Source of the DNA: Cytophagales bacterium | GTDB lineage: Bacteria > Bacteroidota > Bacteroidia > Cytophagales > UBA9547 | Length of the DNA: 33,910 nucleotides | NCBI GenBank assembly: GCA_025360395.1 | Contig: JANYCH010000199.1 | Coordinates: forward strand, 1-33,910 | Direction of reading: 5' to 3' | Shown here: piece after piece, positions 14,112-33,691 of the stretch | How the letters are laid out: each line of letters begins with the position of its first letter | Numbering within the stretch: the first letter of the stretch is position 1 | Made by a program: the position numbers and the translations under genes | Notes under the pieces: generated by a model | What the model was told of the DNA's origin: nothing | Database searches by the model: none | The model's input: the letters and a program-made list of their open reading frames with translations, nothing else

Positions 14112-16583
14112 TTAATCGCTCTCCTTTTGACCTTTATGGAACCTGTCAAAAAGATCTAAACCTATATTCATTTTGCCATCCTTTTCACGGGCTCGAAGGC
14201 GGAGATTGCCGTGTTGAATATCTTTAATTTTAAAATATTCACTGTTATGGTCTTTTAAATTGGATAAAGGGATTTGAATACTCAAATCCGTTTTATGTTT
14301 AAAACTAAAAATACCTTCTAAATAAAGACTTAATACAGATGAGCTTACAACCATTTTTTCTATATAAAGTTCCTCGCCTTCTAAAACAAAAATGTTATTT
14401 ATTTCGTCGAACTGAATATGCATCATATCCCTATTTTTGAAAACCAAGTCTCCAACCTTTTTTAAAGGCAAGAAATTTTTCAATTTCCCCTGAGTTAACA
14501 GAATAGACATTCTACCCTTAATTGATCTTTGTATAGGCTCAAATGAACGGTTTGTTTGACAGTTAAAATTAACCTTAGAGTTAATTATCCCTTCCAGATT
14601 TTCGTTTGTAAGCGAACTTTGACCAAAATTGTTAAATCCATAGAATAGATTTGATGCATCAATATTCTTTAAATTAGCTTCCATTTTGACTTTACCAGAA
14701 TCATTATCCTGAAAAATATAAGCACCATTTAAGGTAATTATTCCTTTTGCAGGCAGATATAGTTTCCAATTATTCAATGATATAGACTCATTAGAAATAT
14801 CAACATTTCCACTTATATCATGAGCAACTAATTTCTTGTATTGAAATTTATGGAGGTTCACATCAAATTCCATCTCCATTTTACTTAAAATTTTATGCAA
14901 GTGACCCATGAATGGTTTAGTTACTTTTATATCATTTTCATCATATTTATGATCTCTTTTAACGAGTAAGTTGTTTAAATTGAAATACGGTGATGATATT
15001 CTCATTTTTGCTTTAATATTATTTTCAGGAAAAAGAAGATAAGGAAGCATATTTTTAAGATCAGCTTGAATTCTGACCTGGTTCTCATTCATTTTACAGG
15101 ACAATCCTTTAACATTCATATCTGAATTAAGAAAATTTAAATCTCCGTTTATATTTGAGAAGGCGAGATGCTTTTTCAAAATATCTATTTTACCATCGGT
15201 TATATTTAAACCAGCATTTATATACCCTTTCATCATGATCGGGTCTGGAATTGTCTTCAAAGAAATGGGACCCTTTTGTTTAAGCTTAAATGAAAAATTG
15301 CCTCCCGAAAATTTATAAACAGAAGTATCTAAATAGTGATGAAAAGCTTTTAACGGACCACTTAATACAGCATCAACATTTGTTTGAGGAACATTTAAGT
15401 TGTGAAGGTCTCCTATTACTTTAAAGTTTATTTCCTTATAATTAAAATCTGAGGTCAGAATTTTGAGGACAGAATTTTCATCACTAGAAAGTTGAAGAGT
15501 ATCGTAATGATTATTGAAGACACCATTTAACTTTACATTTTCCAGAAAATATTCTATTAGTCTTACTCTACTATTTTCAATTTGAAAATTCACCAGAGCA
15601 AATGGCTGAATACCAGGTTTGGTATCTAACACCAAATGGACTTGGGCACTAAGTCCATCATCAACATGAAATTTATTAAGTACTTTCTGTAAATGTGTAT
15701 TCAATAATGAAATTGCTTTGTCATAATCGGTATTGGTTGTATTGATATCCAGGTATATTAGAGGCAGTTTCTTATTTAACCTACATTTTCCTGAAACTTC
15801 GTAAATCTGTCCTTCGCTATTTATTGATGACTGCAACAAAGTCAACAAACTGTCTGACTTATTATAACTCAAATGCAGCTTAAGTTCCAATTCCTTGTTT
15901 GCAAGAAATGGTCCTTTTAAATTATTAAACAATAAGCCTTCTGAAAAAACATGACCATTAACATGACAAACAACTTGATTTTCCAATTTCTTAACTCTTA
16001 TTAAGACGTCATTACAAGCAAGTTGAATCCGTTTTTTTTTCTTATCATCCAAATAGACCAACGATACTTTTTTAAAGACTATTTTTTTAAGGTCAAAGTC
16101 CATTAAGGAGGACTTTACACTTTTGGTGGTATCAGACTTTAATGACTTTCTGGAGAAAACAGACAGATTTGAATAACCTAAAGAATCTTTAAAGATGTTG
16201 AAACTGGCATTTTGAACTATTATACTTTTTACATCAAGTTCCTTTCGTAATAATTTAAAAAGATGAATCTGCAAATAGACTTTTTCAGCCTTGATTATTT
16301 CATTATTATAAACCGAGTCTTTTATCGTAAGGCCAATTAAAGTGACTGAAACAGATGGAAATTCTCTAAAAATGGTAAAGCTTATATTATTTAAATGTGC
16401 ACTTCCTGTAATTCCATTATCAATTTCTCTATTGAAATACGCAAGAATATCCTTTTTATGTATGCTGGCGATAGAATATGCTATTATAAGGAGACTTATT
16501 AAAAATAAGAAAAACCAGAAAAAAACTTTAAAAATAAAAAATACAAATCTTTTCATCAGCGGAGCATTAAAAAATAAAGCCAT
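14112..16583 (-). CDS. AsmA-like family protein
   Basis: Single N-terminal TM anchor, then ~780 aa of beta-rich sequence (FREFPSVSV, FNNFGQ..L...NLEG). True start may be the Met at residue 10. Confidence 0.75.
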   Translation of the reverse strand: MALFFNAPLMKRFVFFIFKVFFWFFLFLISLLIIAYSIASIHKKDILAYFNREIDNGITGSAHLNNISFTIFREFPSVSVTLIGLTIKDSVYNNEIIKAEKVYLQIHLFKLLRKELDVKSIIVQNASFNIFKDSLGYSNLSVFSRKSLKSDTTKSVKSSLMDFDLKKIVFKKVSLVYLDDKKKKRIQLACNDVLIRVKKLENQVVCHVNGHVFSEGLLFNNLKGPFLANKELELKLHLSYNKSDSLLTLLQSSINSEGQIYEVSGKCRLNKKLPLIYLDINTTNTDYDKAISLLNTHLQKVLNKFHVDDGLSAQVHLVLDTKPGIQPFALVNFQIENSRVRLIEYFLENVKLNGVFNNHYDTLQLSSDENSVLKILTSDFNYKEINFKVIGDLHNLNVPQTNVDAVLSGPLKAFHHYLDTSVYKFSGGNFSFKLKQKGPISLKTIPDPIMMKGYINAGLNITDGKIDILKKHLAFSNINGDLNFLNSDMNVKGLSCKMNENQVRIQADLKNMLPYLLFPENNIKAKMRISSPYFNLNNLLVKRDHKYDENDIKVTKPFMGHLHKILSKMEMEFDVNLHKFQYKKLVAHDISGNVDISNESISLNNWKLYLPAKGIITLNGAYIFQDNDSGKVKMEANLKNIDASNLFYGFNNFGQSSLTNENLEGIINSKVNFNCQTNRSFEPIQRSIKGRMSILLTQGKLKNFLPLKKVGDLVFKNRDMMHIQFDEINNIFVLEGEELYIEKMVVSSSVLSLYLEGIFSFKHKTDLSIQIPLSNLKDHNSEYFKIKDIQHGNLRLRAREKDGKMNIGLDLFDRFHKGQKESD

Positions 16584-16731
16584 GAAATTAATGGTTACTA
16601 TTTAATCAGAAAATTTAAAAAGAAAATGAATAGAATGGATAGAAATAACAATAAAATTTGGCTGAAATATAAAGAATGTCAGAATTAAATATGGATTTAT
16701 TATAAAAATAATTATTATTTCAGAATTAAAT

Positions 16732-16761
16732 TTTGTATTTTAAAATAAATATTTACCTTTG
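16732..16761 (+). promoter_or_regulatory. Bacteroidota primary-sigma promoter (-33/-7)
   Basis: TTTG at 16732-16735, 18-nt spacer, TACCTTTG at 16754-16761. Predicted +1 falls close to the ATG at 16765. Confidence 0.7.
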
Positions 16762-16764
16762 TTA

Positions 16765-16851
16765 ATGTTCAAGCCCGAACACATATCGACTTCTCTAAGG
16801 TTTAACCAAGACCTTCTCTGCACTTCAGATTTCTGTTGTTGTTGCCGCTAA
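16765..16851 (+). CDS. Putative poly-cysteine leader peptide MFKPEHISTSLRFNQDLLCTSDFCCCCR
   Basis: Manual translation, ATG 16765 to TAA 16849-16851. Codons TGT TGT TGT TGC at 16834-16845 plus TGC at 16819. Lies right after a promoter and upstream of tRNA-Cys. Confidence 0.7.
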   Translation: MFKPEHISTSLRFNQDLLCTSDFCCCCR

Positions 16852-16901
16852 CTTTCCGTCGCAACGCCTTCTATCATTTCTTTAATATAAACTTCTTCGA
16901 C

Positions 16902-17171
16902 ATGAATAAGTCAGAAATCAAATTAATAAGTTTTAAAAAATTCTTTACTAAATACTTCAAGTTTCATTCAGACATTATTGTTTTTAACCCGGATGCAGAT
17001 TATTCATATGAATTTAAGGATCCTCGCGTGTCGTTCCTTGAATTGAATATCAACAATGGCAACCAAAGAAAAGATTGGCTGGAGTACAGTTATTATCCCT
17101 TCTTAGGCTCTAGCCTAAATTTAAAAATAAACGATGAAAATGCATTATTTGGTTTTATAGGCAATAATTAA
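16902..17171 (+). CDS. Hypothetical small protein (89 aa)
   Basis: ATG 16902 is in frame within the 16836..17171 ORF. Fills the gap between the leader and tRNA-Cys; no recognised family. Confidence 0.6.
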   Translation: MNKSEIKLISFKKFFTKYFKFHSDIIVFNPDADYSYEFKDPRVSFLELNINNGNQRKDWLEYSYYPFLGSSLNLKINDENALFGFIGNN

Positions 17172-17177
17172 AAATTT

Positions 17178-17248
17178 GGCTACGTGTCCGAGTGGTTAGG
17201 TACGGGTCTGCAAAACCTTTTACAGCGGTTCGAATCCGCTCGTAGCCT
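17178..17248 (+). tRNA. tRNA-Cys (GCA)
   Basis: Acceptor stem GGCTACG/CGTAGCC, anticodon loop CT-GCA-AA (anticodon 17210-17212), T-arm AGCGG-TTCGAAT-CCGCT, discriminator U73. CCA is not encoded. Confidence 0.95.
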
Positions 17249-17276
17249 CAAGTGAAAGATTTTCTTTTTTAACTAG

Positions 17277-18509
17277 TTAGTTAAAGCAGAATATAAATTC
17301 AGTTCCGATATTTTTTTGACTGTTTACTTTGATAGATACATTATACTTATCTAAAAGCTTTTTTACAATATAAAGGCCCATACCTGTCCCTTCTATATCA
17401 TGATTGTCCATACGTTCAAACAGGTTAAATAACTTTCCTTGTTCTTCATCTGTCATCCCTCGACCGTTGTCTGCAACTGATAGATATTTTAGTCCATCCT
17501 GAGTAGTAAAATTCAGTTTAAGATAGGGAGCCCGGTCAGGATGTTTGTATTTTATTGCGTTTGTAATGAGGTTATAAAGCAAACTTTTAAAAGCAACCCT
17601 ATTAAAAGTAAAATCTTCAACTTCAGAGAAGTTTTCGACAATTATTGAATTTGAATTATTTATCAGGGAAGTGATACTTGTTTCAATCTCTTCTAATACC
17701 GGTTTAACTTTGAAAGTCTCGAAAGAGGTACCTTCATTTTCTTTTCTTATTATATCAATTAATTCATTAATGGTGTTTTTAAGTTGTACAATAGCGCCTT
17801 CCTGCATTTTAATTATTTCAAACACTTCTGTTGAAATGGGGCTTTCCAACTCATCTTCTAATGCACTTATAAGTGCTTCCAGATTTGCGACCGGCAATTT
17901 CAGATCGTGAGAGGCTGTATAAACAAACTGATCGAGGTTATTATTAAGACTAATAAGTTTTTGATTATAAATCTGCAATTCAGCTTCAATAGTTTTCCTT
18001 TTCTCTATTTCAGCATTGAGGTCTGCATTCTTTATGTTCAGATCAGCGGTTCTTTGCTGAACAATTAATTCAAGATTATTATATGCTTCTTCAAGGTTCC
18101 TTTGCTGAATGTAAATGTCAATAAAAGAATAAACTTTAGATCGGGTAATTACCGGATCTAAAGGCTTAAACAGATAATCAACAGCTCCTTTGCTGTAACC
18201 TTCGGAAACATATTTGGATTCGTGGTTCAGGGCTGTGACAAATATGATGGGTATATTTTGAGAAGTTTTAGATTTCTTCAAAAAAGAAGCAACCTCATAA
18301 CCATCCATTTCGGGCATTTGTACGTCTAAAAGTACCAAAGCAATATTGCCTTTGTAAGCAATTTTCAAAGCTTCGTTTCCCGAGGTTGCGCGAAGAAAAT
18401 TAACAGACCTTTCTTCTAAATTTAGCAAATTCTCAAGAGCATAAATATTTTCTTCCTTATCATCTACTATGAGGACGTTGACAGAAATATCCTTTGGGTT
18501 TGAATTCAT
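17277..18509 (-). CDS. Hybrid REC-HisKA-HATPase sensor kinase
   Basis: N-terminal REC (VDD, LLDVQMP, FKP), H-box ASHDLKLP, N-box NLITNAIKY, DNGRG and GTGMGL. Confidence 0.92.
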   Translation of the reverse strand: MNSNPKDISVNVLIVDDKEENIYALENLLNLEERSVNFLRATSGNEALKIAYKGNIALVLLDVQMPEMDGYEVASFLKKSKTSQNIPIIFVTALNHESKYVSEGYSKGAVDYLFKPLDPVITRSKVYSFIDIYIQQRNLEEAYNNLELIVQQRTADLNIKNADLNAEIEKRKTIEAELQIYNQKLISLNNNLDQFVYTASHDLKLPVANLEALISALEDELESPISTEVFEIIKMQEGAIVQLKNTINELIDIIRKENEGTSFETFKVKPVLEEIETSITSLINNSNSIIVENFSEVEDFTFNRVAFKSLLYNLITNAIKYKHPDRAPYLKLNFTTQDGLKYLSVADNGRGMTDEEQGKLFNLFERMDNHDIEGTGMGLYIVKKLLDKYNVSIKVNSQKNIGTEFIFCFN

Positions 18510-23442: not shown

Positions 23443-23806
23443 TAAAGGTTTATTTCGTGGATTAATATTTGTCTTAAAACAATTTCAAACAATCTTAACA
23501 AAATTTAAAAATTCCATTCGTTTCATACTGATATATAAGAACTTATAATAATCCTGTATCAAACTGTTTTTCAAATAGTTATTTAAAAATCTAAATAACA
23601 TACAACTAAAAAAACTTTGCCATAAGGTACGCATGAAACCATAAAAAATTATATTATTGTTATTTAATACTTCTAATTTAATAAATAAGACAAGTGGATA
23701 AAAATAAATATTATTTATCCTTTTCGAAACAAAAATCCGAATATTGACCAAAAACAATATTTTTAAATATTATAATTAGTAAAATTTGAATATTTCAGAA
23801 TAATAT

Positions 23807-23837
23807 TTTGTAATTACTTGAAGCATCCCTATATTTG
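23807..23837 (+). promoter_or_regulatory. Bacteroidota primary-sigma promoter for the TauE/SafE gene
   Basis: TTTG at 23807-23810, 19-nt spacer, TATATTTG at 23830-23837. Confidence 0.7.
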
Positions 23838-23933: not shown

Positions 23934-24941
23934 ATGAAAATCAGGAGAATTATAGAAAAACATGATAAGGCAGACATTGAGCATGAGGAATTAGGCATAC
24001 CGCCTTTAGAAGAATCAGTTCACGAAGAACCATGGAGCCTCCTCAAAAAATGCTTAGTGGCAGCATTCATTGCAATAGGTGTGGTAACTGTAGTTTATTT
24101 TCTGCTTCAATTCCTTTTTCCCGTTTTTACTGCTGAAAAAGTTGTTCAATTTATTGATGTATTTACCCAGAAAAAATTCTGGACATATGTATTTGTTGGC
24201 CTTGGTGCACAAATGATTGATGGGGCTTTAGGAATGGCATATGGAGTTAGTTCTACAACCTTTTTATTGAGTGCAGGTGTAGGGCCTTCCGCAGCAAGTG
24301 CAAGTGTGCACATTGCCGAAATGTTTACATCAGGTATATCCGGCATTTCTCACCTCAAATTTGGGAATGTTAACAAAAAGCTATTTAAAAGTCTTTTATT
24401 TACCGGTGTACTTGGAGGAATGCTAGGTGCATTTCTATCAACACAAATAGATGGTAATATTCTAAAGCCTTATATATCAGGATATTTGCTTATCATGGGC
24501 ATTGTAATTATAAGGAAGGCTGTTAGAAAGAATGTTAAAAAGAAAAAGACAACCAATATACGCTGGCTGGCTTTGTTTGGCGGGTTTGTTGATGCAGTCG
24601 GTGGTGGAGGTTGGGGACCTGTAGTAACTACTACACTTGTTAGCTCAGGAAGAGACCCTCGTTATACGATAGGTTCGGTTAACCTAGCCGAATTCTTTGT
24701 CGCAGTAGGTACGGCTTTGTCATTTGCCCTTTTCATGGGCCTTCAGGAATGGCAAACAATAGGTGAACTTGGTGTTATTATTTTAGGCTTAATAGTGGGT
24801 GGAATGTTTGCAGCGCCATTTGCTGCTATAATATTAAGACATGTAAAGGCAAAAAAACTGATGATTTTTGTTGGTATACTTATTATTGTTTTGAGCCTTC
24901 GGACACTGCTGAAAGCATTATTTGGAATACAATTATTCTAA
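23934..24941 (+). CDS. TauE/SafE (TSUP) family transporter, sulfite-exporter-like
   Basis: AQMIDGALGMAYG, SASVHIAE, DAVGGGGWGP and GSVNLAEFFV motifs; multiple TMs. Confidence 0.9.
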   Translation: MKIRRIIEKHDKADIEHEELGIPPLEESVHEEPWSLLKKCLVAAFIAIGVVTVVYFLLQFLFPVFTAEKVVQFIDVFTQKKFWTYVFVGLGAQMIDGALGMAYGVSSTTFLLSAGVGPSAASASVHIAEMFTSGISGISHLKFGNVNKKLFKSLLFTGVLGGMLGAFLSTQIDGNILKPYISGYLLIMGIVIIRKAVRKNVKKKKTTNIRWLALFGGFVDAVGGGGWGPVVTTTLVSSGRDPRYTIGSVNLAEFFVAVGTALSFALFMGLQEWQTIGELGVIILGLIVGGMFAAPFAAIILRHVKAKKLMIFVGILIIVLSLRTLLKALFGIQLF

Positions 24942-31554: not shown

Positions 31555-32277
31555 TTGACAACAAAAACCCTCTATCTAATCCCTAGTAATTTAAGCGAAG
31601 CCCCCGTTCCGGGCATGTTACCCCCATTTTTACTGGATGTAATTTTAAAAACCAAATATTATTTTGCAGAGGAGTTAAGGACATCAAGAAGATTTATCTC
31701 TTCTTTAAAACTAGGGATAAAAATTGAAGGCCTCCAGTTTTATGAATTAAATAAGAAAACCAGCAGGACCGAATTGAAAGATATTTTACTCTCAATTCCT
31801 GCTGAGGTGGAAGAAATTGGTGTAATGTCAGAAGCTGGATGCCCTGGGGTGGCCGATCCTGGTGCGAAAATTGTTGCCATTGCACATGAACAAGGTTGGA
31901 AAGTAGTTCCTATTCCCGGCCCTTCCTCAATTATATTAGGTTTAATGGGGTCTGGTTTTAATGGACAGCAGTTTTCTTTTGACGGATACCTTCCTATAAA
32001 CAACGAGGACAGGGCAAAAGCAATGCGGAAAATTGAAGAAGATGTGAATAATAAAGGAACGACACATATTTTTATCGAAACCCCATTTAGAAACCAAATT
32101 GTTTTGGTGGAGCTTTTAAAAAACTTGAATCCCCAAACTCTTCTTTGCCTTGCAATAAACCTTACCTCAGATACAGAATCAGTAGTGACAAAAAGAGTTG
32201 CAGTCTGGAAGAATAATATTCCGAATATACACAAAATACCAACTATATTTCTGATAGGAAAGTCTGAAGCAAAATAA
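31555..32277 (+). CDS. Tetrapyrrole-methylase family SAM methyltransferase (RsmI-like paralog)
   Basis: LYLIP, MSEAGCPGVADPG, PIPGPSS, FDGYLP and FIETPFRN motifs; TTG start. Confidence 0.85.
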   Translation: MTTKTLYLIPSNLSEAPVPGMLPPFLLDVILKTKYYFAEELRTSRRFISSLKLGIKIEGLQFYELNKKTSRTELKDILLSIPAEVEEIGVMSEAGCPGVADPGAKIVAIAHEQGWKVVPIPGPSSIILGLMGSGFNGQQFSFDGYLPINNEDRAKAMRKIEEDVNNKGTTHIFIETPFRNQIVLVELLKNLNPQTLLCLAINLTSDTESVVTKRVAVWKNNIPNIHKIPTIFLIGKSEAK

Positions 32278-32380: not shown

Positions 32381-33691
32381 ATGGCTTTATTATTCACTTC
32401 AGAATCAGTTTCGGAAGGACATCCGGATAAGGTTGCTGACCAGATTTCAGATGCTATCCTTGATGCCATGCTAGCACAGGACCCTTCATCACGTGTTGCC
32501 TGCGAAACCCTTGTTACAACAGGATTAGCAGTAGTAGCAGGAGAAATTACAACTAAAGCATATGTTGATGTTCAGGAAGTAATCAGAAAAACAATTGCGA
32601 ATATTGGATACACCAAAGCGGAATATATGTTTGAAGCCCGCTCTTGCGGAATCATCAACGCACTGCATTCCCAATCTCCAGACATTGCGCAAGGAGTAAA
32701 TGAGGGAGAAGGTTTAGACAAAGACCAAGGGGCAGGAGATCAGGGAATGATGTTTGGCTACGCCAGCAAAGAAACACCAGAATATATGCCAATGGCACTT
32801 GCTTTTTCTCACCGTATAGTAAAATACATGGCTGAAATAAGAAAAGCTGGTAAAATGATGACCTACCTGAGACCAGATACTAAGTCACAAGTAACAATTG
32901 AATATGACAGTAAAGGAAAAGCTTTAAGAGTAGATACTATTGTTGTTTCAACACAGCATGATGATTTCGTTAAACCTGCTGACAGCAGCAAACAAGCAAA
33001 AGAAAAAGCTGATTCTGCTATGTTGGAAGTAATCAAAAAAGATATTCTGGAACAAATAATTCCTGCATGTATCCCAAAAGAATTACTTGATGCTAAAACC
33101 AAATATTATGTAAACCCAACAGGGGTTTTTGTAATAGGTGGGCCTCACGGTGACTCTGGCTTAACAGGCCGTAAAATTATTGTGGACACTTATGGAGGAA
33201 AAGGAGCACATGGTGGAGGTGCATTTTCAGGGAAAGACCCTTCTAAAGTTGACAGAAGTGCAGCATATGCTGCAAGGCACATCGCTAAAAACCTGGTCGC
33301 TGCAGGTGTGGCAGATGAAGTATTGGTACAAGTTGCTTACGCAATCGGAATTGCGAAACCAGTTTCAGTTAATGTGAACACTTACGGTACTAACAAAACA
33401 GGTTTGAATGATGAGCAAATTGCGACTGAAGTGGCCCAGATATTCGACCTTAGGCCTAAAGCTATTATTGACAGGTTTGGATTGAAAAACCCTATTTATT
33501 CTGAAACGGCGAAATATGGCCACATGGGGCGGGAGCCTTATGAAAAAGAAGTTGATGTAAACTATGTCACCTTGGAAGAAAAAGGCAACCAGGTAATTGA
33601 AGTACGTACCGCATCTAAAAAGAAAGTCCAGTTCTTTGGTTGGGAAAAACTTGACTATGTTGATAAACTGAAGAAAGCTTTTTCTTTGTAA
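32381..33691 (+). CDS. metK: Methionine adenosyltransferase
   Basis: [28 protein letters not shown] and DRSAAY signatures. Confidence 0.98.

Follow-up and report, generated by a model that had tools for sequence, protein, structure and literature searches.

A candidate cysteine-sensing leader peptide ahead of a sulfhydrylase-like relic gene and a tRNA-Cys gene in one genus of Cytophagales

Why should a short reading frame that ends in a run of cysteine codons stand directly ahead of a small protein gene and a gene for the tRNA that reads those codons? This question is raised by a cassette in a 33,910-nucleotide (nt) stretch of DNA, hereafter the window, from contig JANYCH010000199.1 of a Cytophagales bacterium (assembly GCA_025360395.1). 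A sequence-only reading of the window had proposed that the cassette is a Bacteroidota equivalent of the cysteine-responsive attenuators of mycobacteria. Our evidence is from computation alone, on contigs of metagenome-assembled genomes (MAGs); the genome of the window, G000, has 3.1 Mb and 36.5% guanine plus cytosine. We think it rather probable that the cassette forms a small operon of a sulfur regulon, controlled by cysteine sensing through the ribosome. Its parts, including a short open reading frame (sORF), a second open reading frame (ORF) of 89 amino acids (aa) and a tRNA gene, are as follows.

16732..16761, plus strand: match to the sigma-A-type promoter of Bacteroidota, with TTTG at 16732-16735, an 18-nt spacer and TACCTTTG at 16754-16761
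16765..16851, plus strand: leader sORF, 28 codons, putative leaderless start, peptide MFKPEHISTSLRFNQDLLCTSDFCCCCR and then the stop
16834..16845, plus strand: four consecutive Cys codons, TGT TGT TGT TGC (codons 24-27), followed by CGC and TAA
16902..17171, plus strand: ORF89, 89 aa, made of residues 1-50 of N-terminal type and short pieces of a C-terminal domain
17178..17249, plus strand: tRNA-Cys (GCA), found by ARAGORN and by Rfam (RF00005, 53.5 bits), 6 nt after the ORF89 stop

These parts agree with what had been described from the letters alone, namely a TTTG-N18 promoter 3 nt before a 28-codon ORF with four Cys codons near its stop (the peptide ends in CCCCR), an 89-aa ORF behind it and a tRNA-Cys(GCA) 6 nt past the stop of the latter. 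The ORF listing gives the sORF from an upstream TTG at 16759.

The case for the cassette rests on its conservation, because the promoter match and the Cys run are each at chance level. When a 701-nt DNA query was compared with 41 related genomes, only contig C359 of genome G002 matched beyond the tRNA, with 77% identity. The order of parts there is an sORF (MFNPEHISTPLRLLQSLIPASDSCCCCC), an 89-aa ORF that is 67% identical to ORF89 and a tRNA 7 nt past the stop, and the Cys run has five codons, TGT TGT TGT TGC TGC. With the ORF89 protein as query, 301 genomes of the order yielded G000, G002:C359 and a second place in G002, contig C403, where a 28-codon sORF (MFNPELISQFTRNGNLFFQMFNRCCCCC) precedes a 403-aa ORF and a tRNA-Cys lies 20 nt past the stop of that ORF. 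The Cys run at C403 also has five codons, in a TGT/TGC order unlike that of the window. Common to all three cassettes are the frame, the length of 28 codons, a C-terminal run of four or five Cys and a distance of 3-4 nt from the -7 box to the ATG. Within the genus, the Cys run is present in 3/3 cassettes, with TGT and TGC in another order at C403.

The comparison of the window with C359 shows how unevenly the sORF has changed. Its codons 1-8 differ at one base, with neighbouring synonymous sites saturated (the proportion of synonymous differences, pS, is 0.67 in a histidine-kinase gene), codons 9-23 carry nine non-synonymous and four synonymous changes, the four TGT/TGC codons show no difference, and codon 28 has gone from Arg to Cys. 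Frame, length, regulatory codons and some signal in RNA or DNA are kept while the peptide drifts, as is the pattern in a leader peptide. The reading of the sORF as a sensing leader is supported by this, because only the Cys run, the length and the 5' nucleotides of the sORF are conserved. It also agrees with what is expected of a leader in three respects. The run of sensed codons is kept in all three cassettes while the rest drifts; the sORF is short and co-oriented, ends 50 nt before ORF89 and is predicted to be co-transcribed with it; and the genes behind such sORFs belong to the metabolism of the same amino acid, as seen in the paralogue of family PF01053 at C403, the ORF89 relic, the tRNA-Cys and the enrichment at metY loci, all treated below. 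The conserved C-terminal Cys cluster might also belong to a functional Cys-rich micro-protein, such as a metal- or redox-binding peptide or the precursor of a modified peptide, rather than to a sensor. We regard this as highly improbable, because the rest of the peptide drifts, as the changes in codons 9-23 show, its counterparts in other genera have only Cys in common, and no maturation genes are found nearby.

The 5' end of the sORF carries a further conserved feature:

16766..16781, plus strand: inverted repeat TGTTC-N6-GAACA, kept in 3/3 cassettes

The repeat could act as a DNA site, or it could fold in RNA into a hairpin that takes in the UG of the AUG. A transcription-factor regulon built on it was considered and dropped, since the genome holds 5 copies of TGTTC-N6-GAACA against 3.6 expected and 36 copies of GTTC-N6-GAAC against 35, which is no enrichment; two look-alikes fall inside coding regions, and a local site is still possible. 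The repeat has a place in another account of the locus, in which the sORF is untranslated, its Cys run is a simple repeat of the (TTG)n type in the 5' untranslated region (UTR), and any regulation goes through the palindromic operator described below and the 5' inverted repeat, acting as a transcription-factor site or an RNA element. That the first 24 nt are conserved at the nucleotide rather than the peptide level, that runs of at least four Cys codons are found 15 times in G000 in any frame, and that an operator-like site sits at the -33 element all speak for this account. We nevertheless consider it improbable, because the frame, the ATG, the 28 codons and the stop after the run are kept without indels at three loci whereas the spacer behind the sORF has indels, because C403 uses its Cys codons differently, and because metY genes of other families are preceded, far above background, by unrelated Cys-rich sORFs whose indels are multiples of three.

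Where would transcription of a translated leader begin? Each of the three cassettes has 3-4 nt between the end of the TAnnTTTG box and the sORF ATG, and in the window this gap is 3 nt. In Flavobacterium psychrophilum the -7 box is placed at positions -12 to -5 in the available text of PMC9723704, and a leaderless start fits with these two observations together. With a box at -12 to -5, the +1 position would coincide in C403 with the A of the ATG, and in the window and C359 it would fall one base further on. On the plus strand between 16600 and 17250, no second TAnnTTTG box was found besides the cassette promoter. The sORF, ORF89 and tRNA-Cys are therefore read as one transcription unit, because neither another TAnnTTTG box nor a terminator-like site separates the sORF from the tRNA and because the tRNA lies 6-20 nt past the stop of the ORF in 3/3 cassettes.

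The protein gene of the cassette had been labelled an unknown small protein, and this label needs to be corrected. A Pfam search with ORF89 gave no match, and a search of 5.8 billion proteins gave only two relatives, both of 89 aa. However, residues 1-50 of ORF89 align with residues 1-50 of the 403-aa paralogue at C403 (42% identity, E = 2e-9), and in a multiple alignment the remainder falls on short pieces of the C-terminal domain while the whole core is missing. On this alignment ORF89 is a multiply deleted descendant of an O-acetylhomoserine-sulfhydrylase-like (metY-like) gene, a miniaturised relic that matches no PF01053 profile and lacks the core with the S-x-T-K region. By its pattern of substitution it is not a dead pseudogene and is under purifying selection, since three orthologues keep the 89 codons and the ratio of non-synonymous to synonymous rates (dN/dS) is 0.157, a rough value as dS is saturated. 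An AlphaFold2 model of ORF89 from a three-sequence alignment was too poor for use (mean predicted local distance difference test score, pLDDT, 49.6).

The 403-aa protein itself (G002:C403, 442-1653, minus strand) belongs to the pyridoxal phosphate (PLP) family of Cys/Met metabolism, PF01053 (9.8e-35), and its best structural relatives are solved O-acetylhomoserine sulfhydrylases. The Lys of the S-x-T-K motif binds PLP, and at the position where the solved sulfhydrylases have S-A-T-K the 403-aa protein reads S-L-E-D. Its closest relatives are 404-aa second paralogues in genus g101 of another family (about 40% identity; L082-L085), which likewise lack the S-x-T-K motif and the C-terminal block of true O-acetylhomoserine sulfhydrylases. 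By these alignments, Lys-less MetY-like proteins of about 403 aa form a conserved subfamily of their own, which is probably a non-catalytic derivative. Each genome of the genus of the window has one ordinary PF01053 enzyme (about 450 bits), and the 403-aa form is found only at G002:C403; a scan of genome contigs with its protein returned only its own record. The link of the cassette to sulfur amino-acid metabolism is drawn because the C403 cassette carries a PF01053 gene and ORF89 is its homologue. As shown by this comparison of sequences, the ancestral cargo of the leader was a metY-type sulfhydrylase gene that lost first the Lys of S-A-T-K, giving the 403-aa form, and then most of its body, giving ORF89.

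The tRNA at the end of the cassette has a normal cloverleaf, the anticodon GCA and U73, with a C.U mismatch in the anticodon stem; the copy at C403 has an additional A1.G72 mismatch. U73 is an identity element of tRNA-Cys. The cassette tRNA is about 82% identical to the housekeeping tRNA-Cys, which is identical in G002 and G003 and lies directly after rpsA. The assembly of G000 holds 16 tRNAs and lacks rpsA, so that the housekeeping locus is not assembled. From these identities the cassette tRNA is more likely an accessory, divergent copy than the sole tRNA-Cys of G000. The claim that it decodes the sensor codons therefore stands in one part only: the cassette does hold a tRNA-Cys(GCA), which, given the housekeeping copy after rpsA in G002 and G003, is not necessarily the sole decoder. 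Linkage to rpsA was found at 10 of 18 tRNA-Cys loci of Cytophagales, with the tRNA 20-50 nt downstream of rpsA. In this rpsA-tRNA-Cys unit (L008 1-1575 in G003; L051 148-2090 in G002:C274; eight more of L003-L020) a small hairpin lies between the two genes and a terminator follows the tRNA. No locus like the cassette was found among the 18 tRNA-Cys loci of the order, and a homologue of the 403-aa protein was found at none of them. Encapsulins of the SrpI-like type are tied to sulfur starvation, and the shell gene of such a type 2A encapsulin (PF19307, 336.8 bits; G002:C403 3-683, minus strand, L114) lies directly after the tRNA-Cys at C403; the four other genomes of the genus lack it.

These observations bear on what the leader controls. 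It may be that it controls ORF89 alone and that the tRNA-Cys stands beside it only by descent, perhaps as a duplicate that marked the edge of a sulfur-starvation island, expressed by read-through or from a weak promoter of its own and without regulatory meaning. At 29 metY-like loci of other genera no tRNA lies within 400 nt downstream, the encapsulin gene that follows the tRNA at C403 is unique in the genus and looks island-like, and change has been faster in the accessory tRNA than in the housekeeping one, as the A1.G72 mismatch of the C403 copy illustrates. We still regard a mere neighbour as rather unlikely, because the ORF has been reduced from 403 to 89 aa while in 3/3 cassettes the full cloverleaf with U73 has stayed in place, 6-20 nt past the stop, and because the interval between sORF and tRNA is free of TAnnTTTG boxes and of terminator-like sites. 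A bolder form of the cysteine-sensing operon, which we put forward only tentatively and think more doubtful than not, would make the accessory tRNA-Cys the real cargo of the leader. It would be a starvation-inducible isodecoder gated by the reading of its own codons, in a closed loop where slow decoding of UGU/UGC gives more tRNA-Cys; the former enzyme gene would be only a short translated spacer or adaptor, and Cytophagales would control operons of sulfur assimilation and transport by a two-input logic, SAM riboswitch (S-adenosylmethionine riboswitch) AND Cys leader.

How might the state of the ribosome be passed on to the genes behind it? The features that bear on this are given below.

16840..16866, plus strand: weak hairpin of the Cys tract, 5' arm GUUGCC.CG in the last Cys/Arg codons, 3' arm CG.CGCAAC 7-15 nt past the stop
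16852..16901, plus strand: C-rich, G-poor spacer with 15 C and 4 G, containing the block TTTAAT.TAAACTTCTTC
17260..17270, plus strand: T-rich run after the tRNA, with the next gene convergent

The sequence-only reading had described co-oriented parts without an intrinsic terminator between them, and indeed no terminator-like site was found in 16000-18000. The T-rich run, which has counterparts after the tRNA in C359 and C403, is the probable end of the transcription unit. The skew of C over G in the spacer is in the top 1.5% of 50-nt windows genome-wide; the spacer has indels among the three cassettes, the sORF has none, and the TTTAAT.TAAACTTCTTC block before the ORF89 start is conserved. Hairpin energies of the Cys tract are -6.4 kcal/mol in the window (z = -1.6), -4.5 in C359 (z = -1.5) and -12.4 in C403 (z = -2.45). 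The mutually exclusive terminator and antiterminator structures of an attenuator were not found, there being no terminator-like sites and weak hairpins, nor does the Cys tract pair with the ribosome-binding region of the next gene, as its predicted partner lies 7-15 nt past the sORF stop. We propose that transcription would start with the A of the sORF ATG or right beside it, which would make the sORF leaderless. When Cys-tRNA is ample, the ribosome would clear the four terminal Cys codons, the Cys tract would pair with the post-stop segment, the C-rich spacer would be exposed and downstream expression would be low. When Cys-tRNA is scarce, the ribosome would stall on the Cys run beside the stop and occlude hairpin and spacer, so that transcription, translation or both could reach ORF89 and the tRNA-Cys. 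As a conjecture on the molecular mechanism, occlusion of a Rho-entry or structure site is favoured over a terminator/antiterminator switch, because there is no intrinsic terminator and because the Cys run always abuts the stop codon.

If Cys-rich leaders serve sulfur metabolism in this order, they should be seen elsewhere, and we examined 28 true metY loci (25 best matches of an order-wide search and three added from the family of the window), nearly all of which show S-A-T-K-W. Counting sORFs that start with ATG, have 8-45 codons, contain two consecutive Cys (CC) and lie at most 400 nt upstream, we found Cys-rich sORFs at 9/28 true metY loci against 34/446 control 400-nt windows from the same loci; under a strict rule of at least three Cys among the last eight residues, the counts are 8/28 and 6/446. 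The nine metY loci, which are not independent of each other, come from at least five genera in three Cytophagales families other than that of the window. Their peptides, for example MRMCCCCQG, MRMRCCCGACCCCC, MQPCCICICCPCCC and MLCCCCCCFSL, each up to its stop codon, have nothing in common but Cys and differ by whole codons. When eight of the nine loci were scanned with Rfam, a SAM-I riboswitch was found upstream of the sORF in 8/8. Within the family of the window there are 16 SAM-I riboswitches in 12 of 22 genomes. Seven stand before metH-like ORFs (recognised by eye, without a profile) with no Cys sORF and one before another gene, and the remaining eight are followed at +7 to +15 by an sORF of 18-35 codons that has Cys at or near its C-terminus in 8/8 cases and CC in 6/8, the background being CC in 11/192 sORFs of this size. 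These eight leaders precede genes for TonB receptors, PstS-like binding proteins or similar proteins. G000 itself has two further sORFs of the kind. At C223 the sORF (MEEFSVPSAIPFNRYKQLAYCCCCC, ending in CCCCC) lies directly behind the SAM-I aptamer and is followed by a hairpin and a T-run; at C210 the sORF (MLFMLNVSLNAKSLVNPLLSKKCCCCQ, ending in CCCCQ) precedes a TonB receptor and a ChrA-family transporter, and an 11-bp hairpin pairs its Cys tract with the bases past the stop. The C210 sORF had been set down as not conserved under a rule of at least three consecutive Cys, a verdict we rejected because the rule is too strict: the orthologues of this TonB-receptor locus in G003 and G001 have SAM-I and sORFs that end in CC. 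The tandems found are located as follows.

L027 2212-2396 (G000:C223); L041 866-1088 (G012:C8); L065-L070: tandems of SAM-I and Cys sORF
L089, L094, L095, L102, L103, L104, L108 and L110: tandems of SAM-I and Cys sORF at metY loci
L041 about 1150-1210, the same region of L065-L068 and L070, and L027 about 2480-2540: conserved (AT)GGTGG stretch

Judged by its arrangement, the tandem looks like a two-input leader that responds to SAM and to Cys. The Cys sORF follows the aptamer at 7-15 nt or at about 110-125 nt. The conserved stretch, which begins behind the Cys sORF and falls 160-220 nt past the SAM-I aptamer, contains (AT)GGTGG and, at several loci, a CCCGGGACAGGG-like segment after it; Rfam gives no match to this stretch, which is perhaps one more structured element. 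At C223 the PstS-like gene downstream of the leader (L027 2565-3236) encodes 223 aa, against 315-356 aa in relatives, and may be frameshifted or truncated, as a different frame runs to the contig end. In the window, an Rfam scan of 16000-18000 with E values up to 10 returned the tRNA only, so that no SAM-I aptamer (RF00162) precedes the cassette sORF. The proposal of a Bacteroidota equivalent of the poly-Cys attenuators thus gains from the conservation pattern of the leader, the PF01053 paralogue, the enrichment at metY and the distance from the -7 box; it loses in that the usual relatives stand behind SAM-I and the cassette does not.

A second layer of control is suggested by an operator-like sequence that overlaps the cassette promoter and recurs in the window.

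16721..16735, plus strand: operator-like 15-mer CAGAATTAAATTTTG, which departs from the palindrome CAGAATAATATTCTG at three positions and ends in the 4 nt of the -33 TTTG
23796-23810, window: CAGAATAATATTCTG palindrome before a TauE/SafE gene at 23934-24941
32209-32223, window: CAGAATAATATTCTG palindrome before metK at 32381-33691

With at most three mismatches to CAGAATAATATTCTG and a TAnnTTTG box 15-23 nt downstream, four places are found in G000. Two of these are in the window, at the cassette promoter and at 23796 before the TauE gene, with the palindrome in the same register at both promoters. Elsewhere in G000 there are sites at C223:18619, C210:4810 and 4851, and C48:1261; the copies comprise a perfect one before a SAM-I/Cys-sORF operon, two before a TonB-receptor operon and one before the ordinary PF01053 gene. 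In other genera of the family of the window, AGAATAATATTCT sites, which are similar to CAGAATAATATTCTG, precede metY. Given the genes it precedes, CAGAATAATATTCTG is a candidate operator of a sulfur or methionine regulator, and its position over the -33 element suggests a second, transcription-factor layer common to metK, TauE and other sulfur genes. The copies before metK, the PF01053 gene and the SAM-I/Cys-sORF operons match CAGAATAATATTCTG better than the cassette site, and it is with moderate confidence, as the pattern was spotted after the fact, that we place the cassette in the same putative regulon.

Several points weigh against a cysteine-sensing operon and have to be set beside the evidence above. 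The pattern TTTG-N17-21-TAnnTTTG is found three times in the window against 2.2 expected, and the 15 runs of at least four Cys codons in G000 put the run alone at chance level; seven of the 15 were examined in context, and the eight others have an open frame of less than 25 codons or a run far from the stop. Only three cassettes are known, in a single genus, where the ORF89 search finds them in 2/5 genomes; the G002 MAG has 6% contamination and the C403 contig is 3.2 kb long. A metagenome scan with the 23-mer from the 5' end of the sORF gave one match, a chance one inside an unrelated coding region, and the region is listed in 0 RNA runs and in two DNA runs, which are from one study and may be the assembly source. 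Four true metY loci checked in the family of the window had no Cys sORF. The 5' end of the sORF is under constraint at the nucleotide level, which an operator or RNA element without translation could explain, and a start-codon hairpin, put forward by RNAalifold, was rejected as no better than shuffles (z = -0.7 to +0.4). If the box stood at exactly -12 to -5, +1 in the window would be the T of the ATG and would miss a leaderless start by one base. Among Bacteroidota, leaderless mRNAs make up a minority: their share is 5.5% in F. psychrophilum (PMC9723704), and 5'UTRs below 10 nt are given for 3.7% of mRNAs of Bacteroides thetaiotaomicron, both figures as stated in the available text of the sources. 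Lastly, with the terminator-like sites at zero in 16000-18000 and the Cys-tract hairpins weak (z = -1.5 to -2.45), the read-out step of the leader is a guess.

How does the cassette compare with known systems? The nearest parallel is the polycysteine leaderless sORF attenuators of mycobacteria, in which, in the available text of Canestrari et al. (bioRxiv 10.1101/834739), the Cys tract sequesters the Shine-Dalgarno site of the next gene. As far as that text goes, the two have in common a first-cistron sORF, here putatively leaderless, with consecutive Cys codons at its end and sulfur or cysteine genes downstream, a Cys tract predicted to pair with downstream RNA where a stalled ribosome would prevent the pairing, and several independent loci per genome in the style of a "ribulon". 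The cassette differs in that it is from Bacteroidota, has no sequence homology to the mycobacterial leaders and would be of independent origin, in that there is no Shine-Dalgarno site to sequester and the partner of the Cys tract is right after the stop rather than at the start of the next gene, and in that most of its Cytophagales relatives are in tandem with a SAM-I riboswitch. The operon here also holds a tRNA-Cys gene, whereas the available text of 10.1101/834739 speaks of tRNA as regards charging only. In the literature searched, with most subscription journals outside the search, poly-Cys leaders are described only for mycobacteria, no tRNA gene is described behind such a leader and no tandem of SAM riboswitch and Cys leader was found; the statement that no description was known holds to that extent.

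In the classical attenuators of trp, his, leu, thr and phe operons, a short ORF carries a run of regulatory codons and the position of the ribosome sets downstream expression. The likeness of the cassette to them lies in its short ORF and the run of codons for the controlled amino acid, but the window lacks a terminator/antiterminator pair and the regulatory codons are directly at the stop; in some metY relatives of Cytophagales (genus g25) a hairpin with a U-tract does overlap the sORF end. In the tnaC-tnaAB operon of Escherichia coli, a ribosome stalled at the end of the leader ORF blocks Rho, the signal being free tryptophan acting on the nascent peptide. Like tnaC, the cassette places its sensing codons last in the leader, has a C-rich, G-poor spacer after the stop and lacks an intrinsic terminator; unlike tnaC, its proposed signal would be a shortage of charged tRNA, and its Rho dependence is conjecture. 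A tRNA gene co-transcribed behind a protein gene is known from secG-leuU of E. coli, and both this unit and rpsA-tRNA-Cys of Cytophagales resemble the cassette in that the tRNA lies a few nt downstream of a protein gene without a promoter of its own; only in the cassette does the upstream unit carry a putative sensor of the codons read by that tRNA.

Experimental proof of cysteine-sensing leader peptides is known from mycobacteria only. Bacteroidota lack initiation led by a Shine-Dalgarno site, and their sulfur regulation is poorly known. The cassette records the stepwise decay of an enzyme gene, first by loss of the Lys and then by in-frame deletions, in which the regulatory front and the tRNA at the back have been kept, and this helps to separate the targets of selection. 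If the proposed cysteine sensing is true, the logic of the mycobacterial Cys leaders would have evolved independently in Bacteroidota, which would make it a general solution for sulfur control, and the tandem seen across the family, a SAM-I riboswitch with a Cys sORF behind it, would combine riboswitch and leader peptide into a natural gate for two signals. Control of a tRNA gene by a sensor of its own codons would be a new kind of homeostasis of tRNA supply.

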